This document shows, in pieces, positions 3,717 to 26,656 of a DNA stretch of 32,000 nt. The stretch is from Okeania sp. (GTDB lineage Bacteria; Cyanobacteriota; Cyanobacteriia; Cyanobacteriales; Microcoleaceae). A program made the position numbers and the translations under genes. Within the stretch, counting starts at the first letter, position 1. Each line of letters starts with the position of its first letter. Location of the stretch: positions 30,001-62,000 of the forward strand of contig NZ_JAYKGW010000061.1 of the NCBI RefSeq assembly GCF_035285525.1, read 5' to 3'. The notes beneath the pieces are model-generated. The model worked only from the letters and a program-made list of their open reading frames with translations. It did no database searches and was not told the DNA's origin.

Positions 3717-3759
3717 TATAATTAATTTTTTAATTTTTCTTGGAAAAGCCAAAAAATTA

Positions 3760-3899: not shown

Positions 3900-3918
3900 G
3901 ATTTAAAATTATTAATTA

Positions 3919-10978: not shown

Positions 10979-11087
10979 AATAATTTAAGGAAATTAGATT
11001 TCCAAAAGATTGCTTTGATTTTGCTTGGGGTTTGCGTATGGAACTCTGTTAGTGAGGCAAGGGAACAGGGAGTAGGGAGTAGGGAAC

Positions 11088-11480
11088 GGGGAACAGTTTA
11101 GACTGTTTGCTACGGCTAAATTTTCTGATAGTTAGGGTAAAAATTATTCCGTTTTGAGACGACAATGGCTAAAAATTAGGACTTTTACGGTTCCCAATAA
11201 ATCAGGACTTAAAAAGACTAAAACTTTTACCTGTAAACAGTTTGATCTTTAATCAGCAAGCCCTACTTAGGGTTTGCTGATTAAGTCTTTTAGGGAAGGA
11301 AGAGAACAGGGAACAGTTTAGACATTCTGTCATGGCTAATTTTTCTGATTGTTAGTGCCAAAACTCTGCCTTTTGGAGACGAAAACGGCTAAAAACTGGG
11401 TACTTTTTCCGGATAGAAAAGGGCTAAAACCTTTGTTGAATAGTGTTTTTATATTTAATGAGCAAACACTATTTATTAGG
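11088..11480 (+). repeat. Dispersed repeat family F, two tandem ~190-200-bp units; the second unit ends in a hairpin overlapping the ftsZ stop codon
   Basis: Both units share GGGAACAGTTTAGAC..CTGT..GGCTAA.TTTTCTGAT.GTTAG...GAGACGA.AA.GGCTAAAAA.T.GG.ACTTTT.C...AAAACNTTT. Partial F modules also occur at 8676-8750, 13085-13520, 13735-13800 (-), 5975-6040 (-) and 22905-23005 (-). The unit 2 hairpin is AATAGTGTTT-N15-AAACACTATT (about 11439-11473). Confidence 0.75.
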
Positions 11481-12767
11481 ATTAGTTGGATTTCGTCGCT
11501 TTTGCAGAAAGTCTGGTATGCTTAATCCTGGTGTTTTTTTCTGTGATTCAGAGGTTGAAGGAGATGTATAATTCTGATTTGTACTAGGATTATGAGCTAT
11601 ACCAGGTACTGGTCGTCTTCCTGGCACTTTTTCTTGGATGGGTTGAGGTTGTGCTTCTCCACTAAAACCTGTGGCTATAACTGTTATTTTGATTTCTCCC
11701 TGAAGCTTTTCATCAATTACTGCTCCAAATATAATGTTAGCATTAGGATCGACCACTTCATAAATAACTTCGGCAGCAGCGTTAACTTCATGTAAGGTTA
11801 AGTCTGTACCTCCTGTAATATTAAATACTACTCCTCTGGCTCCTTCTATGGAAGATTCTAGTAAGGGAGAAGAGATGGCTGCATTTGCTGCTTCTCTAGC
11901 TCTGGATTTACCAGAACCCATTCCTATTCCCATCAACGCTGAACCTGCATCGGCCATGACTGCCCTCACATCAGCAAAGTCAACATTGACTAATCCTGGT
12001 ACGGTAATAATGTCTGAAATTCCCTGTATACCTTGACGTAAGATGTCGTCTGCTATTCTAAAAGCTTCTTGTACGGGAGTTTGGTCATTGATAACGGATA
12101 GCAAGCGATTATTGGGTATGACTATTAATGTATCTACTCTGGTTTGGAGTGCGGAAATTCCTTCGTCTGCTTGAGTAATTCGGCGTCGTCCCTCGAATGT
12201 AAAAGGGCGAGTCACTATACCGACAGTCAAGGAACCTGCTTCTTTAGCAATCTCAGCTATAACTGGAGCAGCACCAGTACCTGTACCACCTCCCATTCCT
12301 GCGGTAATAAATACTAGGTCGGGATGGTCTAAAGCATTAGCTATTTCATCTCTAGATTCTTCTGCTGCTTTTTGCCCAATGGCAGGATTACCCCCTGCCC
12401 CCAAACCTCTAGTCAGTTTTTGTCCAAGTTGGAGGCGTTTGGGAGCATGGGACAATGTTAAGGCTTGGGCATCTGTATTAACTGTCCAAAATTCTATACC
12501 AGAGACTTCACTAGCAATCATGCGGTTAACAGCATTGCCCCCACCACCTCCGACACCAATTACTTTGATTTTGGCCGCATTACTTGGCACAATATTATCA
12601 CTCCTTGATTCTTCTTCTGTTATACCTCTGGAGTCATAATTTTGTTCTCCATGAATCCCGAGGTTATTACGAAATGGATTAGCAACATTTTTTGGCAATG
12701 GAAAATCTCCTTGTCCTTGCAATTGGGGACTTTCATGGTTGACCCCTTCTTGATTATTGACTATCAT
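11469..12767 (-). CDS. ftsZ: Cell division GTPase FtsZ
   Basis: 432-aa ORF with [13 protein letters not shown], the tubulin signature [20 protein letters not shown] and the C-terminal conserved peptide [11 protein letters not shown]. It has the cyanobacterial-type N-terminal extension. Confidence 0.97.
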
Positions 12768-13977
12768 TATTAGGGATGGTTAATATAAAGTTTTTTACTT
12801 TTACTATAAGTTAGTTTATAGCTAACCAAGATGGCTCTGGGAAAATATTAGTCAGTCATATTCTAAGATATGTTGCACTATAATCCAACCAGCTCAGAGT
12901 TTTTATTCATTTTTATTAAATAAAGATTATATACTGGAACTTTACTGTATATTATATCGTCTTTATCCTAATTTATATAAGTCTTTCCCATAGCCATAAC
13001 GTATATAGCAGTCCTATTTTAGGGAGTAGGGGAATAGGAAAGTATTTTTTTTGCCCAACTATGCGCCTAAAATGGTAGCTTGAGGAGTATAGTTGAGCTG
13101 AAAACCAGGTACTTTTTCTAGACCTAAAAAGGCTAAAGCATTTACATAATCACGACTTACGCAGCGACTCTAGATAGGGCTTACTGAAAAAGTCTTTTTT
13201 CAGAAGTAGGGGAGTAGAGGAACACGAAAGTAATTTTTTGATTTTTCCGGAACCGTGCATTAAGCAGCTCAAAACCAGGTACTTTTTCTCTACCTAAAAA
13301 GGTTAAAACCTTTATCTGCCAATATTTTTAGGTTTAATCAGCGAATTTATAGATAGGGTTTGCTGAAAAATTCTTGATCAGGAGATAGGGTGATGGGGAG
13401 ATAGGGAGGTAGAAAGTAATTTTTTTTGCCCAACTATGCGCCCAAAATGCCCTCCTTTTTAAACCTTTTTGACCTAAAAGCTGACATAAAATTCCTAAAA
13501 GCTTTGCCTGTAAATGCCTACTTTTTTAGCAAGTCCTAGATGTAGTGCTTAAAACTATTGCACTGGTAGTTTTTCAACTGTATAATATATAGCAATGTGC
13601 GCACTTAATATTTACAAATTGCAGGAGGTGTCCAAGTAGCTCATAGTCTTATATTATCGGCAATTTATTCTCCCTATTGTCTGTTGCCTGCGCGCAGCGC
13701 TATAGTACATTTGCGTAAGTCCTGATACTAAAGGTTTTAGTAACTTTACGTTGGGAAAAAGTACCAGCTTTTAGGTCAAAAAGATTAAAAAAGTTAGCAA
13801 TAAATGTCTCACCCTTGACAGAAAAATTAATTCCTCTAGAATTTTTATTCTTCCTGATTCTGTACGGACGTTGCATCCAAGGTCTTTGCGACTCCCTACC
13901 TTCACCACAGTATTTTTGACACGAATAAAATAGGATTGCTATATCTACAATTTTATTTTTATCTTACTCCCTACTCC

Positions 13978-14787
13978 CTAGTCCTTATTTAATTGAATTA
14001 AAGGAGAATCTGGATTTTTGAGGTCGATATAAGATGTTTGACGAACATCAATTTTATTTGGTAATTCTCGCATTTGGTCTAGAATATTTAGTTGTTCAGT
14101 AAATTTAGAGCTGTAAGGTCCGAGATGTACTAATCCTAATTCCGTTGTCAGAATTAAATTTCCTGGATCTTGCCAATTAATTTCAAATACTTTTACAGGA
14201 CTACTGCTTAAACCTTGGTATAAAGAATACCAATATTCACGATATTGTTCAGTAAAACCAATTACTTTTAGGGTAGGTAAAGACCTAGTTCTTTCTATAG
14301 CGGAAAAGCTTTCTAAAGGTATCCAATTGCCATAGGCATCTAACCATCCCATTTTTTGGGAGTTACCAGTACCTACTTTATTTTTGAATTTAGTAATTGC
14401 TACGGGACGTTTTTCTATAATCTCAATTCTTAAGCTTGGGGGAAATAAATGACGGCTTATTTTGGCTTTGGCAATTGGACTATGTGATTCTAATTTTTGA
14501 GCTAATATTTGTGGTTTAATTCCCCAAATAGACTGAGGATAATCTAATGAAATTAGGGATAATATGGCTCTGTCTGAAAGTAGTTGGTTTCCTTCTATCG
14601 TTAATTGTTCGGGTTTAGTTATTAGCCAAACTGGCTGAGTAATTGCCCATATTAGACCTGTTCCTATACCAGCAGTTGCTAGTATTTGCCAGATTATTAC
14701 TACTAATTTTAAACGTCGTTGATGTCGTAATTTTTGTCGCCGACTTACTAAGTCTGATTGAGAAACCGATTCAATATTATTAGTCAT
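13978..14787 (-). CDS. ftsQ: Cell division protein FtsQ/DivIB (single N-terminal TM plus POTRA-like domain)
   Basis: 269-aa ORF. It has a basic N-terminus (RRQKLRHQRRLK) followed by one TM helix (LVVIIWQILATAGIGTGLIWAI) and a periplasmic domain. It lies upstream of ftsZ on the same strand, as in other cyanobacteria. Confidence 0.85.
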   Translation of the reverse strand: MTNNIESVSQSDLVSRRQKLRHQRRLKLVVIIWQILATAGIGTGLIWAITQPVWLITKPEQLTIEGNQLLSDRAILSLISLDYPQSIWGIKPQILAQKLESHSPIAKAKISRHLFPPSLRIEIIEKRPVAITKFKNKVGTGNSQKMGWLDAYGNWIPLESFSAIERTRSLPTLKVIGFTEQYREYWYSLYQGLSSSPVKVFEINWQDPGNLILTTELGLVHLGPYSSKFTEQLNILDQMRELPNKIDVRQTSYIDLKNPDSPLIQLNKD

Positions 14788-14793
14788 TTCAAA

Positions 14794-14828: not shown

Positions 14829-15053
14829 TAATTAATGATTGAAAAGGCTGATAGATAAAGTCGTCTTTTGCTGATAACTAAAAACTATTGCCGCTCCGTA
14901 CTCCCCTACTTCCTACTCCCCTACTCCCTAAAAAGGGGGGTGAGAACAATTGATACTCTTGCCCCTAAGTATTGCCATATATCTTGACCAGCTTAAAAGA
15001 ATCTTAGAAAATAACACTCAACAATATTAGAAAATACTAATTTTTTTTGAGAC

Positions 15054-16427
15054 ATGGGAACACAACTATTGAGTGACTTAGATTTAGTTAGATTTTATAA
15101 AGCTTGCAACCCAAGCAAAACTCTGATAGTAGGAAATCCTGATGACAAACAATATTATATAGATTTTGCTAGTGTTAGAGGTACTGATATTATCAGAGAA
15201 TTAGAGAGAACTATTACCTTATTATCTGGAAATCAGCCTACTTGTCAATTATTTACGGGTCATATAGGTTGCGGTAAATCTACCGAGTTATTTCGACTCA
15301 AAGATAAATTAGAGAAACAAGGATATCATGTAGTTTACTTTGAGTCTTCTGAAGATTTGGATATGGGAGATGTAGATGTTAGTGATATTTTATTAGCGAT
15401 CGCTCGTCAAGTTAGCGAAAGTATGGAAAAGGCTCAGATTAAAATGCAATTGGGTTATTTCCAAAAGTTGTTTTCCGAAATCTCCGAACTGTTGCAGACT
15501 CCTATTGAACTGGCGACCGAAACGGAAATCTCTGTGGGAATTGCCAAAATTACTGCTAAAACTAAGGATTCCCCCAGGTTACGTTCTCAGTTAAGACAAT
15601 ATTTGGAACCCCGAAGTAGCACTATTTTAGAATCTATTAATAAGGAATTGTTTGAACGTGCGAACATGGAGTTGAAACGTCGGGGTAAAAACGGACTGGT
15701 GGTTATTGTTGATAATTTAGACCGGATAGATAATTCTCCCAAGTCTTGGGGACGGACTCAACCAGAGTATTTGTTTGTAGACCGGGGTGAACAACTGAAG
15801 AAATTGAATTGTCATGTGGTTTACACCATTCCCTTGACTTTAATGTTCTCTAATGATTATGGCAGATTATCTAGTAGATTTGGGGTGAAACCAAAAATTT
15901 TACCGATGGTTCCGGTGCAAACTAGGTCGAGAAAGTTGGCTACGGGGTCTGATTTTTCGGGAACTCTTGACTATGAACCTGGTATGAATTTGTTAAGGGA
16001 GATGGTTCTGACTAGAGCTTTTCCGAATGTTCCTTCTGCCGAACGTCTGGAATTAATCCCTGCTTTGTTTGATAGTTCGGAAACTTTGGATAGACTTTGC
16101 CGTATTTCTGGGGGTCATATCAGGAGGTTGTTGATGTTGCTTTATAGTTGTTTGCAACAGGAAGACCCTCCTTTTTCTGCTGAGTGTTTGGAGGGTGTGA
16201 TTCAGGAGTATCGGGATGATTTAATTAGGGCGATTACTGCTGATGAGTGGGAGTTGTTGTTTAGGGTGGTGGAAAATCAAAGGGTGACTGGGGAGGAGGA
16301 GTGTCATACTTTGTTGAGGAGTATGTTTGTTTTTGAGTATCGAGATAAGAGTGGTCATTGGTTTGGGATTAATCCTTTGTTGGCGGAAACTAAAAAATAT
16401 ACTACTTGGGTTAGTTGTAATTGTTGA
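15054..16427 (+). CDS. Stand-alone P-loop NTPase (Orc/Cdc6- or STAND-like AAA layout) with no recognisable effector domain
   Basis: 457-aa ORF with Walker A GHIGCGKST (about nt 15257-15283) and Walker B LVVIVDNLDR. The C-terminal half is helical and possibly winged-helix-like. It is co-oriented with the giant NTPase gene downstream. Confidence 0.85.
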   Translation: MGTQLLSDLDLVRFYKACNPSKTLIVGNPDDKQYYIDFASVRGTDIIRELERTITLLSGNQPTCQLFTGHIGCGKSTELFRLKDKLEKQGYHVVYFESSEDLDMGDVDVSDILLAIARQVSESMEKAQIKMQLGYFQKLFSEISELLQTPIELATETEISVGIAKITAKTKDSPRLRSQLRQYLEPRSSTILESINKELFERANMELKRRGKNGLVVIVDNLDRIDNSPKSWGRTQPEYLFVDRGEQLKKLNCHVVYTIPLTLMFSNDYGRLSSRFGVKPKILPMVPVQTRSRKLATGSDFSGTLDYEPGMNLLREMVLTRAFPNVPSAERLELIPALFDSSETLDRLCRISGGHIRRLLMLLYSCLQQEDPPFSAECLEGVIQEYRDDLIRAITADEWELLFRVVENQRVTGEEECHTLLRSMFVFEYRDKSGHWFGINPLLAETKKYTTWVSCNC

Positions 16428-16554
16428 TAGTTCAGGGAGTAGGGAGTAGGGTGCGTTACATTTCATTAGCGCACTACTGTTCCTAATATTTCTACCTGGG
16501 TTAGTTGTAATTGAATTAATAAATAATTGATTTTTAGGGAACCGTAAAAGCTTT

Positions 16555-17140
16555 GTAGGGGTGGGTTTCACTCTTAAGGTAAGGGTTTTGACACTCAGCT
16601 ACCCAAACCCCCCACTCACATTTATCCCATATAAGGAGCGCGGGTTTGGGTAAGTTGGGGATGGCACGGGGAAGTCTTTGATTAAACCGGCTCCTATGTA
16701 ATTATTAATTATTAATTGAAATAGTAGGGGCGGGTTTCACTGTTAAGCTGGCGGTTTTGACAGTGAGCTACCTAAACTCGCCCCCCCCCACCCACATTTA
16801 TTTGTCAATATCATATAAGGAGGGCGGGTTTGGGTAAGTTGGGGATGGCACGGGGAAATCTTTGATTAAACCGACTCCTATGTAATTATTAATTATTAAT
16901 TGAAATAGTAGGGGCGGGTTTCACTGTTAAGCTGGCGGTTTTGACAGTGAGCTACCTAAACTCGCCCCCCTAGCATTGGGTAAGCTCAATCCCCCACCCA
17001 CATTTATCCGTCAATATCATATAAAGAGGGCGGGTTTGGGTAAATTGGGGATGGCATCGGGAAATCTTTGATTAAACCCGCCCTTACATATTTACCCGCC
17101 AATATCATATGTCAATAATTAATAACTAATAACTGAAAAG
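16555..17140 (+). repeat. Tandem array of a ~170-185-bp unit (3 full units plus a partial fourth) filling the spacer between the two NTPase genes
   Basis: Units start at GTAGGGG at 16555, 16724 and 16908. Each holds two long hairpin modules: GGGGCGGGTTT-CACTGT..ACAGTG-..AAACTCGCCCC, and GGGCGGGTTT..N36..AAACCCGCCC (perfect in unit 3: 17028-17037 / 17074-17083). An AATTATT heptamer run follows. The array ends 9 nt before the giant gene's ATG. Confidence 0.9.
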
Positions 17141-17148
17141 AAAGGGTC

Positions 17149-20100
17149 ATGAAAGATTTGGAAGAAAGTATTGTTTATAATCGGCGATCGCTGAAAAGAT
17201 TAATTAGGTCTTTGACTATTTCTCAAGGGCAGTTTTCGTTGGTTTTAGTTGGTTGTAATTATGAATATTTGCAGCAAATAATGATGGCTGAAGTCAGAAA
17301 GTTATCATCTGTGGAGTTGCAAGAAATGGCTTTGCCAACAACTGTGAATAGTTTGTATAGAACCATTGACGAACAATTAGAAAGGTTTCCTAATTCTGCT
17401 GCTGTAATGGTTTTTGATTTACGAAAAGTAGAGAGAGTTGATGAGTTATTAATATCTACTAATCAGGTCAGGGATGAGTTTCGGAAGAAGTTTAATTTTC
17501 CTCTGGTTTTGTGGGTGACGGATGGGTTGTTGGCTAAGTTAATTAGGTTAGCTCCTGATTTTAAAAGTTGGGCAGCGGCTACTATTAAGTTTGAGTTAGG
17601 AACTTCTGATTTAATTCATTTATTAAGGCTAGAGGTTGAGAGTTATTGGGTAAGTGAGTCTGCTAATCAAAAACAATGTTTAATTCCTTTGGTTGACCAA
17701 TCTGTTATGCTTTTGCCTTATTCTTCTGAAGGGTTGTCTAATAGTAAACGTGAAGAGATAGGGTTGGCTCTGGAAGATTTAAAGGGTCGTGGGGAGAATT
17801 TAGAACCTATTTTGGCGGCAAATATAGAGTTTCTTTTGGGTCGAGATGACTATCACAATGAAGAGATAAATTCTGCTATTGATCATTATCAAAGGTGCCT
17901 AAGTTTGTGGAGGTATGAGGTTAGAGAACAATGTTATTTGTATCAACCAGAGTTTCCACAGTTACCAGTTATTAGCAAGACTTTTATTCTGGAACAACAG
18001 GGGATTGTTTTGTATAATATTGCTTTGTGTTATTGTTTGCTGTCTACTCAAAATATTTTAGATAATTCTCAAGAGTTAGAAAGGGCTAAACTGATACTGC
18101 TAGAGGCAAAACAACTTTTTGAAAAGGTTAATAGTTTTACTTTGGTTGCTGAAGTAACTACTACTTTAGGAGGGGTGGTAAAACAGATGAGGTGTTGGCA
18201 AGAGTTAGAAGATTTGGCTTTGGCAGGAATAGAGTTGCATCAAAAGTATGGAAATGAGTTACAAGTAGCGCAAGATTATGGTTTTTTGGCGGAAGTTGCT
18301 CTCCAAAGGTTAAATTGGAGCGCGGCTCAGAGGTTGTCTGAAAAGGCGTTGAATATTTTGTTTTATGCTAAGGATGTAATTTTACCGACTGCCAAAAATA
18401 AATATTTATTATTATTGGCTAAAAGTCTGAAAAATTTATATCGTCAAGTTGAGGCTATTGAATATTTAGAAATAGCTGAGGCTACGGAAAAACAGGCGGT
18501 GGAAAATAGTTTAAAGTTTCAAAAAAATAGAGACCCAAAACTTTATATTGAGATTTTGACGGAGTTGCGCTCGCTTTATTATGAGCAAGGCAGATATTTA
18601 GAGGCATTTCGTTTAAAAAGAGCTTCTAGAGAGGTTGCTCATCAATACGGACTTTTGGCTTTTATTGGTGCATCTCAGTTGCAACCCCAAAGGGGAGTGG
18701 GGGAGTGGGGGAGTGGAGGAGAGGTGGAGATGTGGAGACGGGGGGATTCAGGGATGGGGAGTGTGAAGTCTGTTTCTGCTTTTTATAATTTACCTGTGGA
18801 AATAACTGCTTCTAGTCGGCAAGAGGATATTAATAATCTTGTGGAAAGAGTCTGTCGGGATGATTATAAGTTGACTATTATTCATGGTCGTTCTGGTGTG
18901 GGAAAAAGTTCTTTGGTTAATGCTGGTTTGATTCCGGCTTTAAGTAATATGAGTATTTCGGCGCGAGATACGATGATATTGGTGGTTCAAACATATAAAG
19001 ATTGGTTAGGAACGTTAGGAAGTTCTCTAGAGAAGGCTTTACAAAAAAGAGGTTATTACGGTTATCAGTCACCAGTTAATGGTTGTCAGTCAAGTCAAGA
19101 GTTAGGCTCTCATAATAGGGTTCCCTTAAGGTCAGAGGCTGAAAAAATTATTCCCTATTTGTCTGATATTACGGAGGAGTTTAATTCTAGAGAGTCGTCT
19201 ATTTTGGAGCAAGTTAAAAGGAACGGGGAGAATAGTTTATTAACGGTAATAGTGTTTGACCAGTTGGAGGAGTTTTTCTTTATTAGTAATGGCAGTGTGG
19301 AGAGGGAGGCGTTTTATAGGTTTATTTGTGATTGTTTAAATATGCCTTTTGTGAAGATGATTTTTTCGATGAGGGAAGATTATCTACATTATTTGTTGGA
19401 GTGTGATTTTATTGGCTATTTAGATGTTATTAATAATAATATTTTAGATAAACAAATTCGTTATCATGTGAGAGATTTTTCTAAGAAGGATGCTTATAAT
19501 GTTATAGAATGTTTGACTCGGAGGAGTTGCTTTAATTTAGAACCTCAATTAATTAATGCTATTGTTGAAGGTTTGGCGGATGAGAGGGAGCAAGTTCGCC
19601 CTATAGAGTTACAAGTAGTTGGCAGTCAACTCCAGGAAGAGAAGCCACCAATTAAAACTTTAGAACATTTTCAACAAAAGTTTGGTATTAATCCGAAAAA
19701 GGCAAAGGCTAGATTAATTAAAAAGTTCTTGGAGCAAGTAATAATAGATTGTGGTGAGGAGAATGAGGAGGCTACTATGCAGGTTTTGTATGCACTGACT
19801 AATGAGAATTTAACTAGAGCCAGTCGTACTGAGAAAGAGTTGTTAGAAATAGTTCAAAGATGTATGGAACCGACAAATTTTCTGATAAAAAGTCAGTCTG
19901 GCGATTTTGCTATAAGTCAGTTTAATTATTCGGAAGAAACGAAAAAGTTACTAGATTTAATTTTAGAAATATTAGTAGATTCAGGACTATTATTTGTTCG
20001 CCAAGAGTTTCAGGAAAAATACTATCAGCTAGTTCACGATTATGTAGTAAAACCAATTAGGAATAGGTTTAATTTAGAGGAGAGATTGCAGAGGGCAGAG

Positions 20101-22743
20101 GCAGAAATAAAAAAGGTTGAGATTGCTAAGAATCAGGCAGAAACTGATAAAATAATTAGTCAAAATCAGTTAAATATAGTATTAAAAAGACAGTTGACGG
20201 CGGCGATAGTCGGAATTATATTAATGTCATTTTCTACTATTACGACTTTAGGTTTTTGGCAAAAAGCTATTTTTCAAAAGGAAGTGGCTCAAGCTCAAAG
20301 ACAGTTAGCAAATGCTCAAAAACATCGAGCCGATATTAATAGTATGACGGCTCTTTCGGAGGCTTTATATTTCTCTGGTTATAAGTTTGATGCCCTCATC
20401 GAAAGTATTAAAGCAGGTCAAAAATGGCAAGAAATCAAACAATTATCAATAGAAAATGACCTCTCAAAAGATACAGAATATCGTATAGCAGCTTCCCTAC
20501 AACAAGCAATTTATGGAGTCAATGAATACAATCAATTAGTAGGACATAGCGACGTAGTTTGGAGTGTCATATTTCATCCTGAAAAAAAATTAATAGCTTC
20601 GGCGAGTGCAGATAAAACGATTAAAATATGGAGCAAACAAGGCAAACTAGAAAAAACTTTGACTGACCATACGGACAAAGTTAGCAGAATAAGTTTCAGT
20701 CCTAATGGTCAATATTTAGCTTCGGCTTCCCATGATAAAACGGTAAAAATATGGAACTTTGAACGATTAGAAAATAAACCTATTTCTCTCAAAAGTCATC
20801 GTGATGCGGTAGTCACGGTAAACTTCAGTCCGAACGGTCAAATATTAGCGTCAGGTTCCCTAGACAAAACGATAAAAATTTGGAGCCAAACAGGAATATT
20901 ACTCAGAACAATTAAAACTAAAACAATTATTCAATGGGTAAATTTTCATCCTAATGGCAATATTATAGTTGCTGCCAATCAAAACGGAACAATACAACTA
21001 TGGAATCTCAAAGGGCAACTTTTAACTACTATAAAACATCAAGATAATAATAGTAATCACGCCGTTTATAGCGCTAACTTTTCTCCCGATGGCAAAAAAT
21101 TAGTAACGGCAAGTAGAGATAAAACTATCAAAATTTGGAATTTTTCGGGCAACAAATTGACTTTGAAAAAAACAATAACCGGACACAAAGAACAAATTAT
21201 TAGTGCAGTCTTTTCTCCAGACGGCAAAACTATAGCTTCCTCAAGTATAGACAAAACTATTAAAATTTGGGCTTTAGACGGAACCCTCTTAAAAACCTTC
21301 CTTGGTCATGGAGACACGGTTACTCAAATTAACTTCAGTCCAGATAATCAAACATTAGTTTCAGCTAGTTATGACAAAAGCATTAAACTGTGGAATCTCA
21401 AAAATAGTTCTCTCAATATTCTCAAAGGACATAAACACAGAATTCTTAATGTCACTTTCAGTGCAGATGCTCAAATATTAGCTTCTGCATCCCAAGATAA
21501 TACTATTAAACTTTGGAGTTCCACAGGCAAACAATTGAACACTTTGAGAGGTCATACAGACAGAGTATCTAGCGTCAGTTTTAGTCCAGACAGTCAGATA
21601 CTCGCCTCCGGTAGTTATGACAATACAGTAAAACTATGGTACTTCAACACTCCCCAAAAAAACTGGAGAAAAGAATCAATAAACGAACCTCAAGATTGGC
21701 AATCAGACCACCAAAATAATCAATATTATTTAGAGAATAAAAAGCATCAAAAAAATCAACATTACAACCTAGAAAAAAAAAACAATTGTTTTGTCAGACT
21801 GAGTAATTTTTGTCTGATATCCTTAAACACAACTATCCCCTTTTTTCCAGCAAATCTTTATTCGCCATCACATCAGTTTTCTGAAGAAGAAAAATATTCC
21901 AACTTAATTGAAATTACAGTTGATACTCAACTAAAAACTTGTAGTAAAACAAGATGTTTTCCTAAATCAAATTATCCCCCCTTACCCCCTTTAAAAAAAG
22001 AAGAAACTTATCCAAACCTTCCTCTCAGGAATATCGACCTGGTTGGACATACAGACAGTGTAATGAGTGTCGCTTTTAGTCCTGATAATCAAATTATTGC
22101 CTCTGGTAGCAAAGATAAAACCGTAATGCTATGGAACCGGGAAGGTAAGTGGTTGAAAACTTTACCTGGACATAAAAAATGGGTAAGTAGTGTCAGTTTC
22201 AGTCCCGATGGTAAAATTCTTGCTTCCGCTAGTGATGATGGTACGGTAAAATTATGGACTAATAAAGGTAAATTGCTCAGAACTATCAATGCTCATAATA
22301 GTTGGATTTTAGGAGTAAGCTTTAGTCCAGATGGTCAGGCGATCGCTACTGCTAGTTATGATAATACCGTTAAGCTTTGGAGTCTTGATGGTAAACTACA
22401 GAAAACATTTTTGAAAGGAGCTAGTGATAGTGTCACCAGTGTCAGCTTTAGTCCAGATGGTCAGGTTTTGGCTTCGTCTAGTTATGATGGTAAAGTCAAG
22501 CTCTGGAGTCTGAATGATGGTAGTTTATTAAAAACATTAAGTGGTCATCAGGATAGCGTTATGAGTGTCAGTTTTAGTCCTAATAGTAAATTGTTAGCGT
22601 CTGGGAGTAGAGATAAGACTATTATTTTGTGGGACTTGGCATTAGATGATTTATTAGAAAAAGGTTGTATTTGGGTAGATAATTATTTACGGACTAATCC
22701 TCATGCTTTTCAGAGCAATGGTGAACTTTGTGGAAATAAGTAG
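17149..22743 (+). CDS. Giant multidomain STAND-type NTPase: N-terminal alpha/beta module + TPR-like helices + P-loop NTPase + coiled coil + single TM helix + 14 WD40 repeats
   Basis: 1864-aa uninterrupted ORF. Walker A is IIHGRSGVGKSSLVNAGLIPAL (about aa 578-599) and Walker B is LLTVIVFDQLEEFF (about aa 700). The hydrophobic helix LTAAIVGIILMSFSTITTLGFW lies at about aa 1015-1037. There are nine WD40 units (aa ~1131-1497), then a ~130-aa low-complexity insert, then five more WD40 units. It ends with LDDLLEKGCIWVDNYLRTNP, the typical tail of cyanobacterial NTPase-WD40 proteins. Confidence 0.9.
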   Translation: MKDLEESIVYNRRSLKRLIRSLTISQGQFSLVLVGCNYEYLQQIMMAEVRKLSSVELQEMALPTTVNSLYRTIDEQLERFPNSAAVMVFDLRKVERVDELLISTNQVRDEFRKKFNFPLVLWVTDGLLAKLIRLAPDFKSWAAATIKFELGTSDLIHLLRLEVESYWVSESANQKQCLIPLVDQSVMLLPYSSEGLSNSKREEIGLALEDLKGRGENLEPILAANIEFLLGRDDYHNEEINSAIDHYQRCLSLWRYEVREQCYLYQPEFPQLPVISKTFILEQQGIVLYNIALCYCLLSTQNILDNSQELERAKLILLEAKQLFEKVNSFTLVAEVTTTLGGVVKQMRCWQELEDLALAGIELHQKYGNELQVAQDYGFLAEVALQRLNWSAAQRLSEKALNILFYAKDVILPTAKNKYLLLLAKSLKNLYRQVEAIEYLEIAEATEKQAVENSLKFQKNRDPKLYIEILTELRSLYYEQGRYLEAFRLKRASREVAHQYGLLAFIGASQLQPQRGVGEWGSGGEVEMWRRGDSGMGSVKSVSAFYNLPVEITASSRQEDINNLVERVCRDDYKLTIIHGRSGVGKSSLVNAGLIPALSNMSISARDTMILVVQTYKDWLGTLGSSLEKALQKRGYYGYQSPVNGCQSSQELGSHNRVPLRSEAEKIIPYLSDITEEFNSRESSILEQVKRNGENSLLTVIVFDQLEEFFFISNGSVEREAFYRFICDCLNMPFVKMIFSMREDYLHYLLECDFIGYLDVINNNILDKQIRYHVRDFSKKDAYNVIECLTRRSCFNLEPQLINAIVEGLADEREQVRPIELQVVGSQLQEEKPPIKTLEHFQQKFGINPKKAKARLIKKFLEQVIIDCGEENEEATMQVLYALTNENLTRASRTEKELLEIVQRCMEPTNFLIKSQSGDFAISQFNYSEETKKLLDLILEILVDSGLLFVRQEFQEKYYQLVHDYVVKPIRNRFNLEERLQRAEAEIKKVEIAKNQAETDKIISQNQLNIVLKRQLTAAIVGIILMSFSTITTLGFWQKAIFQKEVAQAQRQLANAQKHRADINSMTALSEALYFSGYKFDALIESIKAGQKWQEIKQLSIENDLSKDTEYRIAASLQQAIYGVNEYNQLVGHSDVVWSVIFHPEKKLIASASADKTIKIWSKQGKLEKTLTDHTDKVSRISFSPNGQYLASASHDKTVKIWNFERLENKPISLKSHRDAVVTVNFSPNGQILASGSLDKTIKIWSQTGILLRTIKTKTIIQWVNFHPNGNIIVAANQNGTIQLWNLKGQLLTTIKHQDNNSNHAVYSANFSPDGKKLVTASRDKTIKIWNFSGNKLTLKKTITGHKEQIISAVFSPDGKTIASSSIDKTIKIWALDGTLLKTFLGHGDTVTQINFSPDNQTLVSASYDKSIKLWNLKNSSLNILKGHKHRILNVTFSADAQILASASQDNTIKLWSSTGKQLNTLRGHTDRVSSVSFSPDSQILASGSYDNTVKLWYFNTPQKNWRKESINEPQDWQSDHQNNQYYLENKKHQKNQHYNLEKKNNCFVRLSNFCLISLNTTIPFFPANLYSPSHQFSEEEKYSNLIEITVDTQLKTCSKTRCFPKSNYPPLPPLKKEETYPNLPLRNIDLVGHTDSVMSVAFSPDNQIIASGSKDKTVMLWNREGKWLKTLPGHKKWVSSVSFSPDGKILASASDDGTVKLWTNKGKLLRTINAHNSWILGVSFSPDGQAIATASYDNTVKLWSLDGKLQKTFLKGASDSVTSVSFSPDGQVLASSSYDGKVKLWSLNDGSLLKTLSGHQDSVMSVSFSPNSKLLASGSRDKTIILWDLALDDLLEKGCIWVDNYLRTNPHAFQSNGELCGNK
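18692..18766 (+). repeat. G-rich STRR-like repeat segment translated in frame inside the giant gene (linker before the P-loop domain)
   Basis: GGGGAGTGGGGGAGTGGGGGAGTGGAGGAGAGGTGGAGATGTGGAGACGGGGGGATTCAGGGATGGGGAGTGTGAAG encodes GVGEWGSGGEVEMWRRGDSGMGSVK. It resembles intergenic arrays at 8411-8460, 13381-13415, 22743-22806 and 25108-25135. Confidence 0.8.
21644..22038 (+). other. About 130-codon AT-rich low-complexity in-frame insert between WD40 blades 9 and 10
   Basis: It has no WD40 signature and an N/Q/K/P-rich translation (NTPQKNWRKESINEPQDWQSDHQNNQYYLENKKHQKNQHYNLEKKNN...PPLPPLKKEETYPNLP). Homopolymers are A7 (21656-21662), A7 (21749-21755), A10 (21773-21782) and A7 (21993-21999). A hairpin-like GTCAGAC..GTCTGAT lies at about 21793-21818. 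Confidence 0.8.
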
Positions 22744-22806
22744 GGGAGTAGGGGAGTGAGGGAGTGAGGGAGTAGGGGAGTGAGGGAGTGAGGGAGTGAG
22801 GGAGAG
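22743..22806 (+). repeat. (GGGGAGTA/GGGAGTGA)n array starting within the stop codon of the giant gene
   Basis: Read directly: TAGGGGAGTAGGGGAGTGAGGGAGTGAGGGAGTAGGGGAGTGAGGGAGTGAGGGAGTGAGGGAGAGG. The TAG stop at 22741-22743 is part of the first unit. Confidence 0.95.
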
Positions 22807-23200: not shown

Positions 23201-23950
23201 ATGAATGACAATAATAAACAAACTTTACCAGAAATGAATGATGTTTGGCAAGAAACATTAAATTGGCAGCCAACAACACTACAAAAAGAACAATTTCAAA
23301 AACTTTATGAATTAATTATTATTGGCAATAAAAAGTTAAATTTAACTCGAATTACTAACCCGGAAGAATTTTGGGAAAAACATCTTTGGGATTCTCTTCG
23401 AGGGATTAAATTTATCTTAGAAAATCAAATAAATTGGCAAGAGAGAAAAAAGGTTATTGATATTGGTACAGGGGCTGGTTTTCCTGGATTACCAATTGCA
23501 ATTACTCTACCTCAATATGTTGTTAATTTACTTGATTCAACCCATAAAAAAATTAGTTTTATTGAAACAATATTAGCAGAATTAAACATTAAAAATGCTT
23601 TAACTATAACTAACAGAGTTGAACAAATAGGTCGTCTATTTCAATATAGAGAAAACTACGATACTGCACTTTTAAGAGCCGTTGCACCTACAGTTGTCTG
23701 TGCTGAATATGCTTTACCATTATTAAAAATAGGTGGAATAGCAATTTTGTATCGAGGAAATTTCACAACTGATGAACAAGCAAATTTGTCAGAAGTTGTC
23801 AAAATTTTAGGAGGCGAAATAGAGACTATTGAAGAATTTAAAACTCCTTTAAGTAAAAGTATTCGTAATTGTATATATTTGCTAAAAGTAAGAAAAACTC
23901 CCATACATTATCCCCGTGCAGTTGGTGTACCTACTCAAAAACCGCTTTAG
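23201..23950 (+). CDS. rsmG: 16S rRNA (guanine527-N7)-methyltransferase RsmG (GidB)
   Basis: 249-aa ORF with the SAM-binding motif VIDIGTGAGFPGLPIAI, plus LLDS..KK..F and RAVA motifs typical of RsmG. The true start could be a downstream ATG (for example 23234). Confidence 0.9.
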   Translation: MNDNNKQTLPEMNDVWQETLNWQPTTLQKEQFQKLYELIIIGNKKLNLTRITNPEEFWEKHLWDSLRGIKFILENQINWQERKKVIDIGTGAGFPGLPIAITLPQYVVNLLDSTHKKISFIETILAELNIKNALTITNRVEQIGRLFQYRENYDTALLRAVAPTVVCAEYALPLLKIGGIAILYRGNFTTDEQANLSEVVKILGGEIETIEEFKTPLSKSIRNCIYLLKVRKTPIHYPRAVGVPTQKPL

Positions 23951-23962
23951 GGAGTAGGGAGT

Positions 23963-24151
23963 AATACCATTTCTCAAAAAGTTTTCTACATTTGATTGAG
24001 CTGGGGAGCAGGGAAGTAAGGGAGTGGGGGAGAAGTAAAAATCATAAAAATCCACATTAACTTAGCTAAAGTTGGCAAAAAATGATTTGATTTGCGTTAA
24101 TTATTTGATGACTGAAGTATTCCTCAAGTATAACAATAATCTATGGGAATT
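23963..24151 (-). repeat. Dispersed repeat family E, copy 2 (inverted relative to 371-592)
   Basis: The reverse complement reads AATTCCCATAGATTATTGTTATACTTGAGGAATACTTCAGTCATCAAATAATTA...GCTCAATCAAATGTAGAAAACTTTTTGAGAAATGGTATT. Confidence 0.85.
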
Positions 24152-24400: not shown

Positions 24401-25090
24401 ATGATTAACCAAATTATGGAAATGGAAATAGACGAACTATTAAGACAATATGCAAAAGGAGAAAGAAATTTCAGTGGCCTATACTTAATAGAAGCATATT
24501 TGGAAGGAGCCAACTTAGAAGGAGCTAACTTTTTTGAAGCAGACTTAACAGGTGCTAACCTTAGCAAAGCCAACCTCAATCGAATAAACTTGACTAAAGC
24601 GAATCTCAGTGGAGCAAACCTCATTGGAGCCGATTTAAGTGAAGCAAATTTGTCAGATGCTATTTTAGTAGGAGCTAAACTCAATAAAGCAGATCTAACA
24701 AAAGCAAAATTTACCAAAGCAGATTTAAGTCTTTCTAATTTTAGTCAAGTTAATATGGTAGATGCTGACCTCTCCAGAGCTATTCTCTATGAAGTAGACT
24801 TGCATGGAGCTAACTTATACGGTGTTAATCTCCGACGAGCTATTCTTAATAAAGCTGACTTAATAGGAGTTAACCTGGCTAGAGCTGATATGTCAGGAAC
24901 AGACTTAATTGGAGCAAATCTGATGAGAGCAGACTTGACAGAAGCTATTTTAAGTGCTGCTGATTTAGCTGAGGCTAATCTTTTAGGTGCTAATATTTCT
25001 GGTATTAATTTGGATAGAGCTGCTCTCGAAGGAACAACTATGCCGGATGGTACAAGTTATGAAGAGTTTAGTATAGGGTTGACTGAATAA
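24401..25090 (+). CDS. Pentapeptide-repeat protein (cytoplasmic, no signal peptide)
   Basis: 229-aa ORF made almost entirely of A(D/N)LXX pentapeptides (ANLEGANLEGANFFEADLTGANLSKANL...). Confidence 0.9.
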   Translation: MINQIMEMEIDELLRQYAKGERNFSGLYLIEAYLEGANLEGANFFEADLTGANLSKANLNRINLTKANLSGANLIGADLSEANLSDAILVGAKLNKADLTKAKFTKADLSLSNFSQVNMVDADLSRAILYEVDLHGANLYGVNLRRAILNKADLIGVNLARADMSGTDLIGANLMRADLTEAILSAADLAEANLLGANISGINLDRAALEGTTMPDGTSYEEFSIGLTE

Positions 25091-25888: not shown

Positions 25889-26656
25889 ATGAGATTCAAC
25901 ATCTTTTCTACTGTTTTAATTTTCACTACAATTTCTCCTATTTTTCCAGCCATTGCTGAGAATATCCAACATACACAAAAATTATTATCTAGCAAACAAT
26001 GTCCTAATTGTGAATTAACTGGTGCTGGTTTGGTATTAGCAAATCTTCAAGGTGCTAACTTAGAGGGAGCTAATTTGAGTGGAGCTAATCTCAGTCGTGC
26101 GAACTTAATAGGGGCAAATTTATCTGGGGCAAATTTGGCTGGAGCAAGTTTATTTGGGGCGAATTTAACGGGTGCAAATTTAACAGGTGCGAATTTAGCT
26201 GGTACAGATTTAAGAAGTGCTTATTTAACTGGTGCTAATTTAACAGATGTTGACCTAAAAAATACTTTTTTATTAGGTGTTATTGGATTGTCTTCTGATG
26301 TTGGTGAAGCTGAAGATTTTTATCGGTTAGGCATTGCTGAAGCTAAAGCCGGACATTATAAAGATGCTGTCAAATATTATAATCAAGCTATTAGTTTAAA
26401 ACCTGATTTAGCTGCTGCTTATTTTGCCAGAAGTATGGCTCTTGCTGACCTGGGAAGTCTAGAAAGGGCGCTGGTAGATGCAGAAAAATCTAGGGAAATT
26501 TTTATTTCTAAAGGTAGCCAAGAGGGTGAAGAATTATCACAAACTTTAGTAGAAATTATTGACTTACGTTTAAATCCTCCAGAACCAAAAAAGCCTAATC
26601 AAATTGTACATGCTATTGGTTCGTTACTTCCTTCTTTATTAAGATTAGCGTTTTAA
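25889..26656 (+). CDS. Secreted pentapeptide-repeat protein with a C-terminal TPR-like domain
   Basis: 255-aa ORF with an N-terminal signal-like segment (MRFNIFSTVLIFTTISPIFPAIA). About 20 pentapeptide repeats follow (GANLEGANLSGANLSRANLIGANL...). It ends with TPR-like helices (YRLGIAEAKAGHYKDAVKYYNQAISLKPDLAAAYFARS). Confidence 0.88.
   Translation: MRFNIFSTVLIFTTISPIFPAIAENIQHTQKLLSSKQCPNCELTGAGLVLANLQGANLEGANLSGANLSRANLIGANLSGANLAGASLFGANLTGANLTGANLAGTDLRSAYLTGANLTDVDLKNTFLLGVIGLSSDVGEAEDFYRLGIAEAKAGHYKDAVKYYNQAISLKPDLAAAYFARSMALADLGSLERALVDAEKSREIFISKGSQEGEELSQTLVEIIDLRLNPPEPKKPNQIVHAIGSLLPSLLRLAF

Follow-up and report, generated by a model that had tools for sequence, protein, structure and literature searches.

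Present thinking treats bacterial STAND or NLR-like NTPases almost exclusively as immunity proteins, gained and lost along with mobile islands. Does this reading also suit a pair of co-oriented P-loop NTPase genes located next to ftsQ in the cyanobacterium Okeania sp.? A first-pass annotation had taken the pair for a candidate undescribed conflict or signalling system. The window, i.e. the whole stretch of 32,000 nucleotides that was analysed (positions 30,001 to 62,000 of contig NZ_JAYKGW010000061.1), contains the following features, numbered from its first letter:

11469-12767, minus strand: ftsZ (Pfam Tubulin/FtsZ_C), downstream of ftsQ and within the conserved neighbourhood
13978-14787, minus strand: ftsQ (Pfam POTRA_1), divergent from gene 1
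15054-16427, plus strand: gene 1, an open reading frame of 457 aa
16428-17148, plus strand: intergenic spacer between gene 1 and gene 2, a structured tandem repeat of 721 bp
17149-22743, plus strand: gene 2, an open reading frame of 1864 aa coding for a multidomain STAND protein
23201-23950, plus strand: rsmG/GidB (Pfam)

Both reading frames are real and co-oriented, with the positions and lengths that the first-pass annotation had given. All four Walker A and Walker B strings reported there were located in the two proteins, and Pfam agrees with the flanks, divergent ftsQ on one side and rsmG on the other. The intergenic region shared by ftsQ and gene 1 is 266 bp long. No k-mer that might represent a shared regulatory motif is common to this region beyond single clades in 17 taxa, and a scan for consensus promoters and terminators gave background level only. 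Other genes of the window code for PilB-like, DndE, ComFB, ThiD-like kinase, pentapeptide, RRF and UMP-kinase-like proteins; no MoxR, vWA, EACC1 or caspase genes are present in it.

Gene 1 codes for a soluble P-loop ATPase of Orc/Cdc6-STAND type, which consists of a nucleotide-binding domain, a helical lid and a C-terminal winged-helix-like hairpin (aa 426-439). Its catalytic motifs are located as follows:

15258-15284, plus strand: Walker A GHIGCGKST, aa 69-77
15696-15722, plus strand: Walker B LVVIVDNLD, aa 215-223

The Walker A motif is identical in all 77 orthologues and paralogues, and residues I218, D220, N221, L222, D223 and R224 are invariant in an alignment of 37 sequences. Orthologues of gene 1 are 62-86% identical. 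Pfam matches barely exceed their cut-offs (given in brackets): ATPase_2 with 35.9 bits (33.2), NPHP3_N with 25.9 (24.8), AAA_22 with 27.1 (27) and KAP_NTPase with 23 (20). All four are partial matches restricted to the N-terminal half of the domain, and nSTAND5 scores 19.2, under its Pfam cut-off of 34. By its sequence, gene 1 thus belongs to AAA+/STAND-class P-loop NTPases, a membership at the level of class and not of any specific family. The AlphaFold2 model (pLDDT 86, pTM 0.87) retrieves Cdc6/Orc1, ORC4, Apaf-1, CED-4, PAB2304 and RdrA in Foldseek with E between 6e-6 and 1e-3 and query-normalised TM of 0.25-0.41. The best match, 2qby_A (E 6e-6), reaches TM of only 0.37-0.44 at 13% identity, and there is weak similarity to mS29. 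Searches of single sequences and profiles against PDB returned nothing useful.

Gene 2, whose full-length orthologues comprise 1600-1930 aa, combines a pseudo-AAA+ domain, TPR region, nSTAND1 module, coiled coil, one hydrophobic helix and 14 WD40 blades in this order:

17149-17667, plus strand: AAA+-like alpha/beta domain without Walker A, aa 1-173 (AlphaFold2 pLDDT 87)
17233-17262, plus strand: FSLVLVGCNY at the P-loop position of this domain
17716-18708, plus strand: helical TPR-like region, aa ~190-520
18694-18762, plus strand: Gly-rich low-complexity linker GVGEWGSGGEVEMWRRGDSGMGS within the open reading frame
18817-19842, plus strand: nSTAND1 NTPase module, aa 557-898 (Pfam PF20703)
18886-18912, plus strand: Walker A GRSGVGKSS, aa 580-588
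19246-19272, plus strand: Walker B VIVFDQLEE, aa 700-708
20080-20259, plus strand: coiled coil followed by the single hydrophobic helix
20194-20259, plus strand: hydrophobic helix, aa 1016-1037 (Kyte-Doolittle 19-residue mean 1.95)
20518-21645, plus strand: WD40 blades 1-9 (Pfam and blade register)
21646-22020, plus strand: low-complexity N/Q/K/P-rich insert of ~125 aa between blades 9 and 10
22021-22638, plus strand: WD40 blades 10-14 (Pfam and blade register)
22666-22731, plus strand: C-terminal motif CxWVxxYL...C with a conserved cysteine pair

The N-terminal alpha/beta module of the first-pass annotation does exist; this wording is too general, since AlphaFold2 and Foldseek point specifically to an AAA+-like domain that lacks Walker A. 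Its predicted fold matches RAD17-RFC, Skd3, RuvB, CbbX, ORC2/3, Sir3 AAA+, Hda and TnsC (E 2e-5 to 2e-3), and this part of gene 2 is, as judged from the model, a putative pseudo-ATPase. The degenerate P-loop is universal: orthologues keep F[SA]LILVRCNY without GK[ST]. Homology of the domain to the ATPase domain of gene 1 was considered and rejected. Because profile-profile comparison by hhalign assigns it a probability of 0.2% and BLASTP finds nothing, the domain is not a recent copy of gene 1. Stand-alone pseudo-AAA+ proteins of 165-170 aa also exist, one of them in an ordinary metabolic neighbourhood in Coleofasciculus (L082). In the adjoining TPR-like region, which is 29-70% identical in orthologues, Pfam detects TPR_12 (aa 334-403, E 2.3e-5). 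A GGGGAGTG octamer array within the open reading frame (TRF rows 18692-18743) gives rise to the Gly-rich linker that follows.

The nSTAND1 module is recognised with 86.6 bits (cut-off 27.1, E 3.5e-24), which bears out the view of gene 2 as a STAND-WD40 sensor. Both its Walker motifs are intact; G.SGVGKSS is found in 64 of 64 orthologues and D[QE]FEE is conserved. The hydrophobic helix has a counterpart at the corresponding place in 54 of 55 orthologues (mean 1.9) and is, from its sequence, probably a membrane anchor, for which the positive-inside rule favours neither orientation (flanking K+R counts 3.2 vs 2.8). WD40 repeats are detected by Pfam with E 1.3e-157 in 13 stretches, and manual registration resolves the 14 blades proposed earlier, 9 + 5 around the low-complexity insert, a number that would suffice for two complete propellers. 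The insert itself has no Pfam match, and none of such size occurs in Nostoc and Fischerella orthologues examined, in which the 14 blades are contiguous. Blades keep positional orthology (Nostoc vs Fischerella 76% on-diagonal, 49% off-diagonal), and mean identity between repeats within one WD40 protein is 43-52%, with 68-73% for the top pair of blades. The C-terminal cysteine pair is present in 52 of 57 complete orthologues.

As anticipated by the first-pass annotation, neither protein contains a recognisable enzymatic effector. Effector families such as nuclease, protease or TIR were not detected in gene 1 or gene 2 by Pfam, NCBIfam or PADLOC, nor were any matched by Foldseek with the two models (whole gene 1 and gene 2 aa 1-185). 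No effector gene was found in the conserved neighbourhood.

Whether the two genes belong together can be judged from their distribution. Synteny was evaluated in the best 80 species-level loci of a genome-collection scan, a sample biased towards close relatives. In 70 of these 80 loci gene 1 is immediately followed by gene 2 in the same orientation, so the expected co-occurrence across genomes is indeed observed. The gap between them ranges in other loci from -4 bp to ~2 kb and is in some just 42 bp; the 4-bp overlap occurs in two lineages, namely in locus L034 and in Acaryochloris plasmid pREB2. Whole-module paralogues occupy other loci as well as conjugative or mobilizable plasmids, and the pair therefore duplicates as a unit. 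This agrees with the proposed functional pairing. It would be very improbable indeed that the two are mere neighbours with independent functions and form no system. That interpretation could draw on the repeat-filled 721-bp spacer of the window and on loci where gene 1 has no adjoining gene 2 (L005, L036, L046, L037, L038 and L041), and is opposed by the common adjacency and orientation, by the overlap and by the joint duplication and plasmid transfer of both genes. We conclude that gene 1 and gene 2 constitute an undescribed two-NTPase STAND module.

The position of this module is likewise conserved. The arrangement ftsZ<-ftsQ / gene1->gene2 was found in 60 of the 80 best loci, including Okeania, Trichodesmium, Lyngbya, Limnoraphis, Microcoleus, Tychonema, Laspinema, Nostoc, Fischerella and Calothrix, and a separate look-up revealed the same order in Arthrospira. 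On the far side of ftsZ, Arthrospira also carries a metacaspase and an nSTAND1-pentapeptide gene. Divergent ftsQ is located 223-2457 bp from gene 1 in 66 of the 80 loci. The earlier expectation of a block beside ftsQ in related strains thus holds for most of them, and fails as to gene 2 in three ftsQ-linked loci where it is missing beside gene 1 (L005, L036, L046). Gene order is generally poorly conserved between cyanobacterial orders, and here the ftsQ-linked module occupies one locus in both Oscillatoriales and Nostocales. Since rsmG, the other neighbour, adjoins only in the closest Okeania, adjacency to ftsQ is unlikely to be due to chance.

Purifying selection acts strongly on both genes, and on gene 1 to a degree similar to ftsZ: dN/dS is 0.026-0.117 for gene 1, 0.028-0.095 for ftsZ, 0.12-0.25 for ftsQ and 0.12-0.16 for the WD40 region of gene 2. 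Identity of Nostocales proteins with those of the window is 63-65% for gene 1, 69-71% for FtsZ and 46-49% for FtsQ. The dN/dS of the WD40 region together with positional orthology of its blades gives no sign of arms-race diversification. Plasmid-borne paralogues share the high conservation of gene 1 (55-62% identity); this conservation therefore reflects in part the protein family as such and does not prove a housekeeping function. GC content of the block (0.34-0.40) is the same as in the flanks, and a horizontal-transfer signature was rejected on account of this flat profile.

We also examined the repeats in and around the block. The spacer is a structured tandem repeat, as the first-pass annotation had described it; it consists of ~3 composite units (period 184/206, 81-98% identity), each with GC-rich hairpins, and its RNA fold has a z-score of -3.5. 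That it might be a structured RNA belonging to the system was rejected: there is no Rfam match, and none of the 82 other loci contains the repeat, which makes it a local insertion outside the system. The spacer is a lineage-specific, MITE-like insertion between gene 1 and gene 2. Arrays of (GGGAGTA)n type flank the block (14894-14930, C-rich, and 22739-22804, G-rich) and had been taken for brackets delimiting an element. This had to be abandoned, as the same arrays follow many genes and occupy at least 12 intergenic sites of the window (32 matches vs 0.3 expected by chance). They are ordinary genome-wide heptamer arrays and were ruled out as element boundaries.

Relatives of the module provide a different picture from that of the ftsQ-linked copy. 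In unicellular Acaryochloris, copies on the conjugative plasmid pREB2 have HicAB, RelE/ParE, integrases and a NACHT gene as their neighbours. Among the paralogues located on chromosomes in general, the number of WD40 repeats differs, and some copies are truncated. Fusions to TIR (P0279, P0283) or to CHAT+TRADD-N (P0304) are seen in distant (outgroup) relatives of gene 1, which lends the family a conflict-system flavour. The module family is thus not purely housekeeping. Does it correspond to any known defence system? PADLOC-DB 2.0 yields only weak partial P-loop matches for gene 1 (PDC-S20, E 4e-7; mad8, E 8e-5), a WD40-only match for gene 2 and no system match for the pair; identity with a known defence system was therefore rejected, in line with the first-pass proposal of an undescribed system. 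PHROGs gave a single marginal match (gene 1, E 0.0035), and phage genomes contained no matches to the module. Full-text search for the pair, by Anabaena locus tags and by combinations of WD40, STAND and divisome, found no literature on it, and none of the papers searched mentions all3856 or all3855, by our inference the orthologues in Anabaena PCC 7120.

Comparison with described systems reveals partial likeness in each case. The module resembles the Apaf-1/CED-4 apoptosome in that a STAND NTPase is followed by ~14 WD40 blades, enough for two propellers, in its ligand-gated, NTP-dependent oligomerisation building a platform for partners (proposed for gene 2), and in the vicinity of gene 1 to both proteins in Foldseek. 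Unlike in Apaf-1, the NTPase of gene 2 is nSTAND1 (NB-ARC is not among Pfam matches listed for aa 501-1150, E up to 1), CARD or death-fold adaptor is missing from gene 2 and a caspase gene from the window, a pseudo-AAA+/TPR part is added at the N-terminus and a hydrophobic helix between NTPase and WD40, and a separate second ATPase, gene 1, is the presumed partner. Avs and other bacterial NLR-like defence proteins share a STAND NTPase with C-terminal repeat sensor, and some module paralogues occur, as they do, on plasmids among toxin-antitoxin and integrase genes. In contrast to Avs, the pair lacks a nuclease, protease, TIR or Sir2 effector at the N-terminus, its sensor consists of WD40 repeats under purifying selection, its locus is fixed in Oscillatoriales and Nostocales, and no Avs model is among PADLOC matches listed (E up to 0.1). 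The patchy, island or mobile-element distribution characteristic of Avs is not seen for the ftsQ-linked copy, though paralogues do occur on plasmids.

The definition of the nSTAND1 family comes from counter-invader systems in multicellular bacteria (Kaur, Iyer, Burroughs & Aravind 2021, PMC8195603), and gene 2 matches its profile well over threshold. The nSTAND1 proteins described so far begin with effector or adaptor domains, e.g. death-like domains, EADs, TIR or caspase, whereas the N-terminus of gene 2 is a degenerate AAA+ domain, and its dedicated ATPase partner and fixed ftsQ-linked locus set it further apart. The paper by Kaur et al. 2021 predicts, by sequence analysis, mixed active and inactive STAND assemblies from two-gene operons (GT4/HEPN). 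Such operons, as well as ORC/Cdc6 and RFC, provide a parallel for co-assembly, also predicted here, of an active ATPase with a relative whose P-loop has eroded, and Foldseek matches of the pseudo-AAA+ domain include the degenerate ring subunits ORC2/ORC3, Sir3 and RAD17. In gene 2, however, one polypeptide unites the inactive module with an active STAND module and sensor, GT4 and HEPN effectors are absent, and the pseudo-domain has no sequence homology to gene 1. MoxR-vWA ternary and EACC1-caspase systems (Kaur et al. 2020, PMC7159879) are similarly multi-component, NTP-dependent and enriched in multicellular bacteria; their hallmark genes are those absent from the window. The passages of PMC8195603 and PMC7159879 covered here describe no such two-ATPase pair, and those of the latter do not mention ftsQ.

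What then is the function of the ftsQ-linked copy? Most likely it is a fixed signalling switch. This reading is built on what was observed of domain organisation, of P-loops both intact and degenerate, of the pairing of the genes, their synteny and purifying selection, and of the absence of effectors, and the conserved place beside ftsQ-ftsZ suggests a built-in switch and speaks against a mobile anti-phage island. Our tentative main reading, with a probability of roughly 0.45, is an operon-like STAND switch (NLR/Apaf-1-like), vertically inherited in filamentous cyanobacteria in a fixed position divergent from ftsQ-ftsZ and acting by the following mechanism. Gene 2 would be a membrane-anchored receptor whose 14 WD40 blades, arranged in two propellers, recognise a conserved and probably endogenous ligand; should its one hydrophobic helix be a transmembrane segment, NTPase and blades would face opposite sides. 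Binding of the ligand would license NTP-dependent oligomerisation of the nSTAND1 module. The Walker-A-less AAA+ domain and TPR region might serve as a docking platform for gene 1, the active Orc/Cdc6-STAND-type ATPase with its winged-helix-like end, and gene 1 could form with the pseudo-AAA+ domain a mixed active/inactive ATPase assembly, as in ORC/Cdc6 or RFC. The output would be protein-protein or nucleic-acid binding and not an enzymatic effector, with cell division or filament integrity as its most likely target. It is synteny, i.e. the conserved divergent adjacency to ftsQ-ftsZ, that suggests the link to division.

A more far-reaching version, speculative and in our estimate unlikely, considers the ftsQ-linked pair to be core genes of cyanobacterial multicellularity. 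The membrane-anchored, Apaf-1-like apoptosome would read a periplasmic or septal self-signal by its WD40 blades and, together with the partner ATPase, gate division or trigger controlled death of single cells in the filament (necridia, fragmentation). Mobile conflict-type paralogues would in that case descend from an ancient cell-autonomous checkpoint.

The same anatomy could also belong to a conserved conflict or programmed-cell-death system, a possibility that we consider real though somewhat unlikely. The pair would then be a chromosomally fixed NLR-like device for abortive infection or allorecognition, in which WD40 blades sense an invader or damage and STAND modules oligomerise, leading either to clustering of membrane helices into a leak or pore (resistosome-like) or to recruitment by gene 1 of effectors encoded elsewhere, e.g. 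metacaspases. The origin of nSTAND1 in counter-invader systems, TIR and CHAT+TRADD-N fusions of gene 1 relatives, paralogues on plasmids in the company of toxin-antitoxin, integrase and NACHT genes, variable or truncated WD40 parts of chromosomal paralogues, the Arthrospira metacaspase and nSTAND1-pentapeptide gene across ftsZ and the conserved helix between STAND and WD40 all accord with it. The conflict half of the first-pass proposal thus retains support from the relatives, while its Avs-type antiphage form fits the locus poorly, given the fixed position, ftsZ/ftsQ-like selection, orthology of blades and host-like GC. Defence genes typically have a patchy, island-borne distribution. A copy kept at one locus in two orders, slowly evolving blades that remain positionally orthologous, a conserved neighbourhood without effector gene and failure of PADLOC to assign a system weigh against conflict or death as its function. 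Quite improbable, in our opinion, is a housekeeping factor for assembly or remodelling that has nothing to do with division. The pair would then be, for instance, an ATP-driven scaffold of some complex in the envelope, thylakoid or nucleoid, and its place beside ftsQ would be an inherited accident or reflect shared promoter architecture without functional coupling. Strong purifying selection with near-universal retention in sampled filamentous lineages would suit such a factor, as would resemblance of gene 1 to Orc/Cdc6 and mS29, which are assembly-type ATPases binding nucleic acid, the metabolic neighbourhood of stand-alone pseudo-AAA+ in Coleofasciculus and lack of a regulatory motif shared with ftsQ. 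On the other hand, adjacency preserved between orders is exceptional in our data set and hardly accidental, STAND plus WD40 is the design of a switch or sensor and not of a remodelling motor, and mobile paralogues are difficult to square with a pure assembly factor.

We return to the fixed signalling switch as the most likely reading. The module has kept its partner ATPase and its place at ftsQ-ftsZ in Nostocales and Oscillatoriales and evolves about as slowly as division genes. Since Anabaena PCC 7120, which carries the presumed orthologues, is genetically tractable, the question is directly testable. Under the rival conflict reading, the pair would represent a new two-NTPase defence architecture without canonical effector. 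If the module instead reports to the divisome or controls the fate of cells in the filament, it would be a bacterial NLR-type switch that serves development and not defence, and a new component of the poorly understood machinery of division and filament integrity in multicellular cyanobacteria.

Two open reading frames, gene 1 and gene 2, lie at the positions claimed by the first-pass annotation, with ftsQ on one side and rsmG on the other, and every motif quoted there was located in their products.

11469..12767, minus strand, ftsZ, beyond ftsQ as seen from gene 1
13978..14787, minus strand, ftsQ (POTRA_1 match)
15054..16427, plus strand, gene 1, 457 aa; Walker A GHIGCGKST (aa 69-77), Walker B LVVIVDNLD (aa 215-223)
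17149..22743, plus strand, gene 2, 1864 aa; Walker A GRSGVGKSS (aa 580-588), Walker B VIVFDQLEE (aa 700-708)
gene 2 aa 1-173, pseudo-AAA+ domain, five-stranded alpha/beta (AlphaFold2 pLDDT 87)
gene 2 aa ~190-520, TPR-like helices
gene 2 aa 557-898, nSTAND1 (Pfam, 86.6 bits)
gene 2 aa 1016-1037, hydrophobic helix after a coiled coil (Kyte-Doolittle mean 1.95)
23201..23950, plus strand, rsmG/GidB, other side of the gene pair

The window's proteins are 100% identical to those of an Okeania sp. metagenome-assembled genome, and the GC level of the block equals that of its flanks. Elsewhere in the window are a PilB-like T2SSE ATPase (840-3011), a 578-aa ORF without Pfam or PHROG match in the region of lowest GC, 0.30-0.33 (3919-5655, minus strand), a lone DndE-like ORF (6456-6836, E 3.7e-43; no further dnd genes detected nearby) and a ComFB-domain ORF (7280-7714). 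Two pentapeptide-repeat proteins lie 3' of rsmG (24401-25090; 25889-26656, the latter with a TPR tail); TRF picks up their coding repeats as 15- and 30-bp rows at 24503-24531, 24686-24728 and 26054-26246.

Two proposed checks, on co-occurrence of the genes and on the ftsQ neighbourhood in relatives, were run by a scan with the gene-1 alignment, one genome per species; of the first 600 pattern matches, 592 proved to be relatives. The best 80 of the at least 592 relative loci were fetched and searched by tblastn with gene-2 segments, FtsQ, FtsZ and RsmG. The order ftsZ<-ftsQ, gene1->gene2 is found in 60 of these 80 loci, and the pair lies elsewhere than at ftsQ in 10. Three loci have ftsQ and gene 1 on a flank that ends too early, and three (L005, L036, L046) lack gene 2 nearby. 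In L005, a Trichodesmium genome bin, ankyrin-repeat and unknown ORFs stand where gene 2 is expected; in L046 its place is taken by a convergent GH15/phosphorylase-kinase-like gene and WecG, both unrelated, and in L036 by other unrelated genes. Among the 80 loci, rsmG adjoins the pair only in the nearest Okeania. Gene 1 and gene 2 are thus a coherent two-gene module.

The ftsQ-linked order occurs in Okeania, Trichodesmium, Lyngbya, Limnoraphis, Microcoleus, Tychonema, Laspinema, Nostoc, Fischerella and Calothrix, and in Arthrospira platensis NCB002 (L081, looked up separately), where gene 2 is split into ORFs of 190 and 1546 aa; all these genera are filamentous. The 190-aa pseudo-AAA+ ORF and the remainder overlap by 23 bp (10001-15191 of L081), and the split may reflect a frameshift or a pseudogene, or be genuine. 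Beyond ftsZ, L081 encodes a metacaspase (Peptidase_C14) and an nSTAND1-pentapeptide protein (2101-5354). In Nostoc FACHB-892 the order runs on to psbO and then a sigma factor. In Anabaena PCC 7120 psbO is all3854, and we take all3853, alr3857 and alr3858 to be sigF, ftsQ and ftsZ; from these tags and the Nostoc order we infer that all3856 and all3855 are the orthologues of gene 1 and gene 2. Neither tag is mentioned in any paper found by literature search.

The spacer (16428-17148, 721 bp) was confirmed as a structured tandem repeat, with about three composite units (period 184/206), each carrying two GC-rich hairpins (e.g. GGGGCGGGTTTCACTGT...ACAGTGAGCTACCTAAACTCGCCCC; RNA fold z-score -3.5). 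It has no Rfam match and its repeat is absent from 82 other loci. Since the gap between the genes elsewhere runs from a 4-bp overlap (L034) through 42 bp (Nostoc) to ~2 kb, the spacer is regarded as a local insertion, and looks like a genome-specific MITE-like one. The G-rich and C-rich arrays said to bracket the block do exist; as boundaries they were rejected, because (GGGAGTA)n-type arrays adjoin many window genes, with 32 matches where 0.3 are expected, spread over twelve or more intergenic sites and on either strand (e.g. 292-326, 9830-9861, 11061-11087, 13966-13985, 14894-14930, 16434-16451, 22739-22804, 23948-23963, 30131-30426). Other heptamer arrays are ATAATGG x5.7 at 14793, TTCTTCC x10.6 at 23124 and TAGTTAT arrays. 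At 30183-30473, heptamer arrays are embedded in a tandem unit of 72 bp.

Gene 1 matches only generic P-loop entries in Pfam (ATPase_2, KAP_NTPase, AAA_22, NPHP3_N, each barely over cut-off) and no named family in NCBIfam. In its AlphaFold2 model (pLDDT 86, pTM 0.87) a nucleotide-binding domain of AAA+/STAND type is accompanied by a helical lid and a winged-helix-like C-terminal hairpin. Nearest in Foldseek are Cdc6/Orc1, ORC4, Apaf-1, CED-4, the archaeal ATPase PAB2304, RdrA and mS29, all in loose superposition (query-normalised TM 0.25-0.41).

The N-terminal module of gene 2, annotated at first pass as alpha/beta, is so in its model, but is more exactly an AAA+-like core without Walker A; its nearest Foldseek neighbours are AAA+ cores, degenerate ones included (RAD17-RFC, ORC2/3, Sir3, Hda, TnsC). 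Since FSLVLVGCNY occupies the expected Walker A position, and orthologues read F[SA]LILVRCNY with GK[ST] in none, this domain is a pseudo-ATPase. Judged by its motifs, the module combines two active-type P-loops with a degenerate one. Stand-alone pseudo-AAA+ proteins of 165-170 aa also exist (P0428-P0481), mostly ending ...APDFKSWAANPIRFE...ITA; one such gene, in Coleofasciculus (L082, 10001-10513), has ordinary metabolic genes around it, and neither gene 1 nor a STAND gene adjoins it. Within gene 2 an octamer array of GGGGAGTG (18692-18762) encodes the Gly-rich linker (GVGEWGSGGEVEMWRRGDSGMGS) that joins the TPR region to nSTAND1; repeats of intergenic type have thus colonised the ORF with its frame unbroken.

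The single hydrophobic helix is present as described, and the 14 WD40 blades (9 + 5) were reached by manual registration, Pfam giving 13 stretches. A low-complexity N/Q/K/P-rich insert of ~125 aa (21646-22020, aa ~1500-1624) splits blades 9 and 10; the orthologues of Nostoc and Fischerella lack this insert, their 14 blades being contiguous. Of 57 orthologues, 52 retain the cysteine pair of a C-terminal CxWV...C motif. In gene 2 the conserved hydrophobic helix is followed by a putative sensor of WD40 blades. Should this helix really cross the membrane, the blades must be extracytoplasmic, which the conserved cysteine pair fits; the positive-inside rule gives no orientation. No effector (nuclease, protease, TIR, Sir2 or other) was recognised in either protein by Pfam, NCBIfam or PADLOC, nor an effector fold by Foldseek on two models (whole gene 1; gene 2 aa 1-185), in agreement with the earlier reading.

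Between Nostocales and the window, identity is 63-65% for gene 1, 69-71% for FtsZ, 46-49% for FtsQ and 38-45% for the non-WD parts of gene 2. By Nei-Gojobori in five close species pairs, dN/dS is 0.026-0.117 for gene 1, 0.028-0.095 for ftsZ, 0.12-0.25 for ftsQ, 0.05-0.25 for gene-2 regions and 0.12-0.16 for the WD40 region; the sensor therefore evolves no faster than the remaining protein. Fast-evolving NLR sensors carry near-identical, shuffling repeats, whereas gene-2 blades are diverged (mean identity 43-52% inside one protein, 68-73% for the most similar pair) and positionally orthologous (Nostoc versus Fischerella 76% on the diagonal, 49% off; window versus Nostoc 54% and 46%). The chromosomal copy is fixed next to ftsQ-ftsZ and under strong purifying selection.

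Among 1.84 billion representative proteins searched, the gene-1 family comprises 365 clusters at E <= 1e-30. The named relatives sampled at 43-62% identity are all cyanobacterial; at 32-36% the family extends to Blastocatellia, Fimbriimonadaceae and Phycisphaerae. Some distant relatives are fused to TIR (P0279, P0283), to CHAT and TRADD-N (P0304) or to a second STAND/AAA_16+TPR module (P0246, P0255, P0287). Fusion to an N-terminal region of ~550 aa without its own Pfam match also occurs in this set, which includes P0245; a weakly similar Nostoc plasmid protein is labelled 'SAV_2336 N-terminal domain-related' by NCBI. In a neighbour-joining tree the fusions fall outside the core clade and module paralogues are nested within it. 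Chromosomal paralogues vary in WD40 number, some being truncated. On the conjugative plasmid pREB2 of Acaryochloris marina (L083, 8992-15791) gene 1 and gene 2 share a 4-bp overlap and are flanked by HicAB, RelE/ParE, a NACHT gene and two integrases; pseudo-P-loop, hydrophobic helix and the motifs of nSTAND1 are all retained in the giant protein. On Calothrix NIES-4101 plasmid4 (L084, 8995-16502) gene 1 is present in two tandem copies, together with a gene-2 relative whose pseudo-AAA+ domain is duplicated. These plasmid copies of gene 1 are 55-62% identical to the window's, so gene-1 conservation is partly a family trait and no proof of housekeeping; the module family is not purely housekeeping.

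Gene 2 belongs to Pfam nSTAND1 and is a WD40 protein, and the pair would operate as a switch of the Apaf-1 or NLR type. The pair differs from Avs/PADLOC systems in having neither model match nor effector; PADLOC assigned it to no system. PHROGs gave a single marginal match (gene 1, E 0.0035), phage genomes none. Gene 2 is set apart from the Apaf-1 family by lacking NB-ARC and CARD, and no gene of MoxR-vWA or EACC1 systems is present in the window. Kaur 2020 (PMC7159879) nowhere mentions ftsQ, and the accessible part of Kaur et al. 2021 (PMC8195603) describes no pair like this one.

We tentatively favour, at roughly 45%, an Apaf-1-like switch with output by binding, likeliest toward division or filament integrity. 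The WD40 propellers would bind a conserved, probably cell-made ligand, and nSTAND1 would oligomerise on NTP. The pseudo-AAA+/TPR end could then dock the gene-1 ATPase into a mixed active/inactive assembly, as in ORC/Cdc6 or RFC; Kaur et al. 2021 predict such an assembly for STAND operons that pair an active with an inactive gene product. Output would be binding rather than catalysis.

The main rival is a conflict or programmed-death system that has become fixed in the chromosome, acting by transmembrane-helix clustering or through effectors from elsewhere. Plasmid paralogues and the relatives with TIR and CHAT/TRADD-N speak for it. Against it stand ftsQ synteny and a WD40 sensor that evolves slowly and by orthology, and we consider it rather unlikely. 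A housekeeping role without link to division is more doubtful still. That the two genes, which recur together with and without ftsQ, are mere neighbours is very improbable.

This NLR-like module behaves as a core gene would, next to the cell-division genes of multicellular cyanobacteria, and it is testable in Anabaena.
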